Part shown: in pieces, positions 52,549 through 53,403 of the stretch
How the letters are laid out: every line of letters starts with the position of its first letter
How positions within the stretch are numbered: position 1 is the stretch's first letter
Sequence record: OR906198.1
Source: Escherichia phage BP32
Length of the DNA stretch: 64,000 bases
Strand: one strand, 5' to 3'
The notes under the pieces: generated by a model
The model's input: only the letters and a program-made list of their open reading frames with translations
What the model was told of the DNA's origin: nothing
Database searches by the model: none
Program-made: the position numbers and the translations under genes

Positions 52549-53003
52549 TGGAATTTAAAGACTTTTCAACGGGTCTTTATGTAGCAGCTAAGTTTTCAGA
52601 ATTAACACTTGATGCGCTGGAAGAACTTCAGCGCTCTTTACGTGTTCCTAATCCAGTTCCTAGAGAAAAAATTCATTCGACCATATGTTATTCAAGAGTA
52701 AATGTTCCGTATGTTCCATCAAGTGGAAGTTTTGAAGTAGCTTCTTCTGGACATTTAGAAGTATGGAAAACACAAGATGGATCGACTCTTGTACTTGTGC
52801 TAGATTCTGAATATCTGCGCTGTCGACACATGTATGCGCGGGCACTAGGTGCTACACATGATTTTGATGATTACACACCGCATATAACATTGTCTTATAA
52901 TGTTGGACCCTTATCATTTAGCGGTGATGTACAAATTCCAGTCGTATTAGATCGTGAATACAAAGAGCCTCTTAAACTCGATTGGGCAGATGATTTAAAA
53001 TAA
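52548..53003 (+). CDS. 57B: 57B-like 2H phosphoesterase (LigT-like)
   Basis: 151 aa; two H-x-(T/S)-x motifs (KIHSTI and PHITLS). Confidence 0.7.
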
Positions 53004-53023
53004 TTTCACAAAGTTGTTTACAT
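52992..53023 (+). repeat. 32-bp direct repeat, copy 1 (gatttaaaataatttcacaaagttgtttacat)
   Basis: Identical 32-mer at 53322-53353; spans the last codons of 57B and the -35 of an early promoter. Confidence 0.9.
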
Positions 53024-53045
53024 GTTGATGAGGTAGTGATACTAT
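53016..53045 (+). promoter_or_regulatory. T4-type early promoter (GTTTAC -35, 18-nt spacer, TG-a-TACTAT -10)
   Basis: Read directly; matches the T4 early promoter pattern. Confidence 0.5.
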
Positions 53046-53075
53046 TATCTCATCAAAATTAATTAGGAAAATAAA

Positions 53076-53333
53076 ATGAAAACTTTCAAAGAGTTTGCTA
53101 CAAAAACTACTATCACTGAATCTTCTCACGGTATGGAAGTAAAGCTTGGAATGGCTTTAGCTGAAGCTGAGCGTCTTTTCTCTCGTATTAAAGAACTTGC
53201 TGCTGCAGTCGATCCTTCATCTTTTAAAGGAGACCAAACTAAAGTTAAAGCGCTTTTAGCATTATGCTCTGATGCAGGCGAAATCGCTAAGAACGGTTCT
53301 AAGATGAAGAAACGATTAGAAGATTTAAAATAA
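53076..53333 (+). CDS. internal protein (ipI position) with capsid-targeting-like N-terminus
   Basis: 85 aa; N-terminus MKTFKEFATK resembles the T4 capsid targeting sequence MKTYQEFIAE; located after 57B as ipI is in T4. Confidence 0.55.
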   Translation: MKTFKEFATKTTITESSHGMEVKLGMALAEAERLFSRIKELAAAVDPSSFKGDQTKVKALLALCSDAGEIAKNGSKMKKRLEDLK

Positions 53334-53353
53334 TTTCACAAAGTTGTTTACAT
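53322..53353 (+). repeat. 32-bp direct repeat, copy 2
   Basis: Identical to 52992-53023; spans the last codons of the ip gene and the next early promoter. Confidence 0.9.
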
Positions 53354-53375
53354 AGGGTTTTAGTTGTGATACTAT
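53346..53375 (+). promoter_or_regulatory. T4-type early promoter (duplicate of 53016-53045)
   Basis: GTTTAC-N18-TACTAT with TG; same flanking sequence as copy 1. Confidence 0.5.
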
Positions 53376-53403
53376 TACCCTATCAACTACTGAGGAGAAT
53401 AAA

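Follow-up and report, generated by a model that had tools for sequence, protein, structure and literature searches.

The IP ('internal protein') locus of Escherichia phage BP32, a T-even-type locus between gene 57B and the tRNA cluster, holds a single ip5 cassette flanked on both sides by repeat units, which very probably enable the exchange of such cassettes by homologous recombination. This architecture has been known for T-even phages since 1985/1994. The present finding is thus a correct rediscovery that leaves current understanding unchanged, with small additions: hairpin arms covary, the hairpin is biased towards the sense strand, genomes in current databases match the predicted deletion products exactly, and the array lies beside acb1.

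Two promoter-bearing repeat units flank ip5

The analyzed window, a stretch of 64,000 nt of BP32 DNA, derives from a Tequatrovirus (T4-like) genome, and a 2.1-kb query around the site matched 859 phage records, the best at ~97% identity. The gene order is gene 1 (dNMP kinase), 57A, 57B, unit 1, ip5, unit 2, trna.4, trna.3, trna.2 and the tRNA cluster (Table 1), with the conserved trna.4 anchoring the variable slot on the right. No integrase or recombinase was found in or beside the locus, the neighbours being gp1, 57A, Acb1, trna.4/3/2 and an HNH endonuclease 1 kb off.

The sequence-only reading of this DNA had reported a 32-mer (GATTTAAAATAATTTCACAAAGTTGTTTACAT) on either side of the cargo gene. 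Both copies are indeed exact and the only two in the window, where no third copy was found even with up to 3 mismatches permitted. There were no matches to it in 100 dinucleotide-preserving shuffles, and none are expected by chance. With the 32-mer as exact core, the direct repeat extends to 69 nt (83% identical, spacing 330), and a second repeated block comprising the RBS and ATGAAA is 84% identical, giving a total repeat of ~94 bp at ~82% identity with a longest exact identity of 32 bp. As had also been noted, each copy covers the DLK-stop codons of the upstream gene together with the -35 element GTTTAC, and further identity follows in a shared 12-mer core (GTGATACTATTA). Since 57B and ip5 both end in GAT TTA AAA TAA, the repeat takes in the last three sense codons and the stop codon of two unrelated ORFs, those of 57B in copy 1 and those of ip5 in copy 2.

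Table 1 Features of the ip5 locus in the BP32 window.
Feature	Position	Strand	Basis
Late-promoter-like TATAAATA inside gene 1	51955–51962	+	Motif; same position as 'PL1' within T4 gene 1 (X03016)
Gene 57B, Acb1 family (anti-CBASS nuclease), 151 aa	52548–53003	+	PF23474 (2.6e-60); phrog_755; annotated 57B in T4 and RB14
Repeat unit copy 1, T4 PE2 homologue	52988–53081	+	Repeat, promoter, fold, X03016
ip5 (IpV), 85 aa, cargo	53076–53333	+	phrog_3499 'internal head protein' (1.2e-49, full-length); leader; annotation in relatives
Repeat unit copy 2, homologue of T4 PE1 / 'pot. IpI terminator'	53318–53409	+	Repeat, promoter, fold, X03016
trna.4, 61-aa predicted membrane protein	53404–53589	+	phrog_1692 (6e-35); annotated trna.4 in T4, RB14 and PP01
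69-nt direct repeat, copies 1 and 2	52988–53056; 53318–53386		
Exact 32-mer, copies 1 and 2	52992–53023; 53322–53353		
-35 GTTTAC, copies 1 and 2	53016–53021; 53346–53351		
12-mer core, copies 1 and 2	53036–53047; 53366–53377		
-10 TACTAT, copies 1 and 2	53040–53045; 53370–53375		
RBS + ATGAAA block, copies 1 and 2	53057–53081; 53385–53409		
Hairpin arms, copy 1	53025–53038 / 53043–53056		
Hairpin arms, copy 2	53352–53358 / 53377–53383		
Inner helix, copy 2	53361–53364 / 53371–53374		

The early promoter proposed for each copy could be recognized as a T4-type sequence: both contain TTTACA, a 17-nt spacer and TACTAT with a TG extended -10, in agreement with a regex scan and with the T4 early-promoter consensus (-35 GTTTAC, ~17-nt spacer, -10 TAnnnT). 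Within the units, GTTTACAT and GTGATACTAT are separated by a 12-nt spacer. Copies 1 and 2 are direct homologues of PE2 and PE1 of T4, which the 1985 record X03016 (Broida & Abelson) annotates as 'put.' early promoters, each with a 'pot. stem-loop', and this homology suggests promoter activity for the BP32 units. A unit of ~70 bp lies not only on both sides of ip5, but also at every cassette junction in T4, RB14, PST, T6 and RB32. Elsewhere in the window, the promoter at 57241, the closest of six other GTTTAC promoter-like sites, is evidently related to the IP units.

Cassette content of the slot varies among relatives

We compared seven annotated GenBank relatives (T4, RB14, PST, RB32, PP01, T6, Jbel) and 36 IMG/VR loci obtained via gp57B, and 40 of these 43 loci as well as the BP32 window could be parsed into cassette arrays. 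The interval between 57B and trna.4 contained 0 to 5 IP-type ORFs in varying order, which after leader removal fell into ~15 sequence families, confirming the hypervariability that had been ascribed to the locus. The slot is empty in Jbel and in two further loci (L011, L012), and a single cassette is found in T4 (ipI), in BP32, PP01, Shfl2 and pSs-1 (ip5), in a locus of the RB18/teqhad type (L038; ip6) and in L037 (ip7). Larger arrays are present in RB14 (ip5-ipI), in T6 and PST (ip5-ip6), in RB32 (ip5-ip9-ip7) and in L022, which carries five cassettes. The families recur at different places within the arrays and with varying neighbours, Ip5 at positions 1 or 3, Ip6 at positions 1, 2, 4 and 5, Ip9 and Ip7 at positions 1–3, and IpI at positions 1 or 2. 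Among these relatives we encountered neither an invariant cargo nor a differing cargo from which the repeats were missing. Among T4-like genera at greater distance, many IP genes show translational coupling, without a promoter unit between them.

Homology breakpoints and predicted deletion products map to the units

Aligning the window by blastn to T4, homology stops at 53110, past the leader codons, and restarts at 53328 (ip5 stop codon). Against RB14 and RB32 the flanking alignments overlap at 53328–53409 and 53363–53409, and against T6 and PST at 53363–53386. The breakpoints relative to all five phages sit within the repeat units, so that the repeats bound a variable cassette, as had been anticipated from the BP32 sequence.

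A crossover between the two 32-mers of the window would remove exactly 330 bp, containing ip5, and leave the arrangement 57B-unit-trna.4. In blastn, Jbel corresponds to the window minus one repeat period, and its empty site gave a single ungapped alignment to a synthetic 57B-32mer-unit2-trna.4 junction. In L038, where ip6 alone follows 57B, the post-57B unit is identical at 88/88 positions to the unit after ip5 in T6. Jbel and L038 thereby match the products predicted for a crossover within the 32-mer with loss of ip5. Together with the position of the breakpoints, the occurrence of these products in nature bears out the earlier suggestion that the layout suits exchange and deletion.

Units of mixed type were observed as well. 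The unit between ip5 and ipI of RB14 is chimeric, its left arm being of type 2, its right arm and downstream region of type 1. The units of RB32 (between ip9 and ip7), L030 and L023 are similarly chimeric, and in the PST unit between ip6 and trna.4 the switch of type lies downstream of the right arm and ahead of the RBS. In some natural units the two hairpin arms do not match, which is what a crossover inside the unit would yield.

A hairpin with variable stems encloses the -10 element

Each copy contains an inverted repeat folding over the spacer and the -10 element, a feature absent from the sequence-only reading. The predicted hairpin of copy 1 has a folding energy of -15.5 kcal/mol (z -4.8) and that of copy 2 one of -13.7 kcal/mol (z -3.7), while their stem sequences are unlike (GATGAGGTA/TATCTCATC in comparison to ATAGGGT/ACCCTAT). 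Extending the analysis to 49 distinct units from 40+ loci yielded at least 6 to 8 different stem sequences, with the -10 element enclosed in all of them. The register of the hairpin relative to the -10 element varies by unit type, the paired-position sums differing by 6 between the two window copies, and because of these different registers column-wise covariation counting was replaced by an arm-swap test.

In this test, natural arm pairs showed a mean fold of -10.0 kcal/mol, whereas arm-swapped chimeras reached -6.3 kcal/mol (Mann–Whitney p 4.5e-7), and in 30 of 32 hairpin-bearing units the sense strand gave the more stable fold of the two strands, both statistics being indicative rather than exact, as the sampled units are phylogenetically related and their independence is overstated. 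Shuffled units had a mean fold of only -2.9 kcal/mol. G–U pairs made up 44 of the 350 stem pairs in the hairpin-bearing units. As natural arms fold better than swapped arms, pairing has been kept by compensatory change, and the hairpin itself is under selection. The sense-strand bias and the G–U pairs favour a role of the sense-strand RNA over a symmetric DNA cruciform, which is disfavoured by the asymmetry between the strands. These two properties, arm covariation and strand bias, bear on the question of the role of the stem-loop.

A unit's own promoter would initiate transcription roughly at the 3' boundary of the right arm, so that only read-through transcripts would include the hairpin. 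Possible origins of such read-through are unit 1 and the late-promoter-like TATAAATA within gene 1, the latter being the likely source of late transcripts reading over 57A-57B-ip5. We infer that the hairpin most likely functions at the RNA level, in read-through transcripts initiated at early or late promoters further upstream, our best guess being a 3'-end or stability element that is not a canonical terminator. A terminator scan gave no call at either unit, and no T-run follows the stems, which are succeeded by CAAAATTAATT and CAACTACTGAG. X03016 additionally labels the second unit 'pot. IpI terminator'; as the T-run is absent, the scan does not support its reading as an intrinsic (rho-independent) terminator.

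Recombination between units as the probable route of cassette exchange

Each cassette probably forms an autonomous module, comprising a promoter unit with its hairpin, the conserved RBS, start and capsid-targeting leader codons, and a variable part encoding the mature protein. Its ~70–90-bp unit consists of a T4 early promoter (GTTTAC, 17 nt, TGnTACTAT) and the hairpin overlapping the spacer and the -10 element. As like units precede and follow every cassette, general homologous recombination (UvsX/UvsY, co-infecting relatives) can pair them out of register. Such pairing, within one genome or concatemer or between co-infecting relatives, would delete, duplicate, insert or replace cassettes, with every gene staying correctly promoted, and exchanges in the 32-mer, the core, or the RBS and leader region would reproduce all junction types seen. 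General homologous recombination between the units is the most likely mechanism; we infer this pathway from support that is comparative throughout.

In T4-type phages, UvsX/UvsY support very frequent recombination. Singer et al. reportedly found in 1982 that recombination in T4 drops once the homology is shorter than ~50 bp, and with an exact identity of only 32 bp the intragenomic loss of ip5 is probably infrequent. The coupled IP genes of distant genera, which lack the units, indicate that the unit is not the sole substrate for shuffling, and the conserved leader codons probably serve as additional homology.

Conservation of structure with variable stem sequence would also be expected if the units were structure-specific recombination sites, either attC-like or targets of a cruciform or hairpin nuclease, with site-specific movement of cassettes, possibly via mini-circles as proposed for PeSLs. 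The strand asymmetry, reminiscent of attC bottom strands, fits such sites, as do several independent chimeric units whose change of type falls exactly on the 12-bp core separating the arms, and Arbiol 2010 kept site-specific recombination possible, with PeSL mini-circles described in RB49/phi1 (PMC2839356, PMC4122927). The core is, however, the longest stretch common to all unit types, where homologous exchange is favoured too. Moreover, crossovers also occurred upstream of the hairpin in the 32-mer (Jbel, L038) and downstream of it, between right arm and RBS (ip6 to trna.4 unit of PST), and the locus has no integrase or recombinase within or beside it, making dedicated sites improbable. Comparably improbable is the combined proposition that the units act as folded-single-strand signals without an integrase, that the 57B(acb1)-IP array constitutes dedicated, self-promoting cassette capture, and that Ip5 inhibits a defence not yet matched to any IP.

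The copies might resemble each other only as early promoters under shared functional constraint, with no part in gene exchange, given that T4 early promoters have a long common consensus and that the early promoter at 57241 matches the IP units at 57–59% identity over 90 nt. The IP units, however, are 70% identical to one another over 90 nt, gapless from GTTTAC (83% over 69 nt), as compared to only 27–59% identity with the six other GTTTAC promoter-like sites of the window, and the exact identity of 32 nt reaches across four codons (DLK-stop) in genes unrelated to each other. Breakpoints, chimeric units and deletion products all coincide with the units. The extension of the identity into coding sequence and the breakpoint data show that promoter constraint is not the whole story, and we regard constraint without exchange as very unlikely. 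Least probable of all is that a single local duplication or insertion long ago introduced ip5 along with a second 57B 3' end, and that the repeat is a relic of this event with no further function, a view consistent with the resemblance of the two 3' ends for ~25 nt (including EDLK/DDLK-stop) and with the fact that 57B of distant relatives natively terminates in DLK, but at odds with the like unit type flanking unrelated cassettes (ipI, ip6, ip7, ip9) with differing 3' ends and with the repeated variation of cassette order and number, which needs many events rather than one.

Ip5 is a candidate injected anti-defence protein

The sequence-only reading had described the cargo as a small internal protein of the ipI locus. 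The first part is supported by the full-length phrog_3499 match, and the second needs correction, as the cargo here is ip5 and not ipI, the homologous gene being annotated Ip5/IpV in RB14, PP01, PST and T6. Ip5 begins with the leader MKTFKEFATKTTITE (MKTFKEF...), which is of the MKTYQEFIAE-like capsid-targeting type and points to capsid targeting of the protein. In T4, the prohead protease (gp21) cleaves after leaders ending in (L/I)-x-E. In Ip5 the leader is followed by ITE15-SSHG (I-x-E), and a divergent homologue (L019) reads MKTYQTFMTE-SSHG, with MTE-SSHG at the matching boundary. A prohead-protease site is therefore predicted after ITE15, with the homologue likely placing the processing site at the same boundary; Ip5 may be cleaved there and encapsidated.

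No Pfam match was obtained for Ip5 and no PDB sequence match below E 0.7. A single-sequence AlphaFold model (pLDDT 79) showed two long helices, the mature part being a predicted two-helix hairpin, and a Foldseek search of the PDB with this model gave 0 matches at E <= 0.001, with generic helical hairpins only. Ip5 shares with T4 Ip1 (IPI*), Ip2 and Ip3 a leader of the form MKT(Y/F)xEF, small size, locus and early-promoter context. In contrast, no similarity was detected between its mature part and the mature domains of Ip1, Ip2 or Ip3, and the IP families cluster separately, setting Ip5 apart from IpI as a family of its own.

The anti-restriction role noted for IPI is upheld by a 2025 study and applies to Ip2 and Ip3 likewise, since Ip1, Ip2 and Ip3 were shown to block one GmrSD type IV restriction enzyme each, a different one in every case (PMC12373910). 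By analogy with these three proteins, Ip5 is probably an injected anti-defence protein: its leader would direct it into the head, the prohead protease would trim it, and after entering the cell together with the DNA it would counter a host defence. Ip5 is not mentioned in the main text of that study, and we found no experimental work on Ip5 in the literature.

As Ip1, Ip2 and Ip3 each neutralize a different GmrSD enzyme (PMC12373910), the cassette content of the slot probably helps to set host range, and the locus represents a textbook-level case of the swappable, injected counter-defence proteins of T4-like phages. In BP32, ip5 is the only cassette at the slot and a reasonable candidate anti-defence gene to screen. 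It lies directly 3' of the anti-CBASS gene acb1 (57B), and its flanking repeats leave it prone to loss or replacement.

Relation to known systems

Repoila, Tetart, Bouet and Krisch reportedly described in EMBO J in 1994 that ~70-bp promoter-palindrome units flank IP genes, and are said to have proposed recombinational shuffling. The BP32 locus resembles theirs in its location (57B to tRNA cluster), in a ~70-bp unit of promoter and inverted repeat on both sides, in the leader and in the shuffling role, and differs in nothing essential; as in PP01, Shfl2 and pSs-1, ip5 stands alone. The GenBank notes for Ip9 and Ip7 of RB32 likewise state 'flanked by 43 bp direct repeat'. According to Arbiol 2010 (PMC2839356) and Comeau 2014 (PMC4122927), Repoila et al. 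1994 saw PeSL-like sequences at the two highly variable T-even IP loci, in which T4 early promoters are combined with weaker, AT-rich stem-loops and which may account for the plasticity of these loci; both papers treat the IP units as analogues, not homologues, of PeSLs.

The PeSLs of RB49/phi1, PST/T4 and nt-1/KVP40 likewise combine a promoter and a stem-loop; they border small accessory ORFs of hyperplastic regions and have been linked to indels and replacements. PeSLs sensu stricto, however, consist of a sigma70-like promoter and a GC-rich (polyG/polyC) stem terminator, whereas the IP units have a T4 early promoter and AT-rich, variable stems with G–U pairs and no T-run. With such stems, and with no terminator call, the window units were not assigned to the PeSLs sensu stricto.

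The IP array is further reminiscent of integron cassette arrays, having ordered, small, promoter-proximal adaptive genes and structured repeats in which structure is better conserved than sequence. Integrons, however, have an integrase and attC sites, whereas the IP array has neither, provides each cassette with its own promoter and has exchange points that fit homologous recombination.

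Gene 57B and the 3′ end of ip5

The gene upstream of the variable internal protein (IP) array, 57B, is clearly a member of the Acb1 anti-CBASS family, and a known anti-defence gene thus directly adjoins this array; many records label it 'RNA ligase' or 'hypothetical'. The 3′ end of ip5 (53309–53333) resembles that of 57B (52975–53003), both following the pattern CGATT(GGGC)AGA(T/A)GATTTAAAATAA. This likeness extends past the exact 32-bp core of the repeats flanking ip5, and in distant relatives 57B natively ends in DLK, which suggests that the final codons of ip5 were taken from 57B.

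Features of the IP loci and the tRNA region.
Feature	Position	Remarks
57B	52548–53003	Acb1 anti-CBASS family, PF23474, 2.6e-60
HNH endonuclease gene	54398–55009	phrog_14736, 5.5e-124
GIY-YIG-type (segB-like) ORF	55550–56323	among tRNA genes
94-nt 'tRNA-Lys'	56937–57030	ARAGORN call
IP-type ORF	62087–62560	leader MKTYQEFITEA; DUF7412/phrog_3155

Promoter units and IP genes at other sites

The e.x region holds two more early-promoter units. One of them (57577–57640) carries a perfect 10-bp palindrome, ATAGGCTCAT...ATGAGCCTAT, across its −10, indicating that promoter-hairpin modules also occur outside the IP locus. The other (57241–57330) exhibits 57–59% identity to the units flanking ip5 and contains no hairpin.

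At the second IP locus (61606–62560), lysozyme e is directly followed by an early promoter and denV, leaving the ipIII/ipII slot of T4 empty in the window. Instead, an IP-type ORF, with no promoter-hairpin unit upstream, is placed between denV and vs.8, an arrangement common among relatives, e.g. HY01 and Sf21.

In the 57B–trna.4 interval of the IMG/VR relatives (L008–L042), many IP ORFs of the non-Tequatrovirus members overlap neighbouring stop codons (ATGA coupling), which also joins 57B to the first IP. These coupled ORFs have no promoter unit between them, and shuffling in these relatives must therefore be served by other homology, e.g. the leader codons.

tRNA region

Within 54388–55015, tRNA-Gln is reduced to its initial 9 nt, TGGGAATTA, the remainder being swapped for the ~620-bp HNH endonuclease gene, past which homology to RB14 picks up again at tRNA-Leu (55016). 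ARAGORN did not find tRNA-Gln in the window, and the same arrangement of remnant and endonuclease gene is present in 63 GenBank phage records. The tRNA set of the window includes tRNA-Tyr, which T4 lacks, and the 94-nt 'tRNA-Lys' is located in the area corresponding to the stable RNAs C and D of T4.
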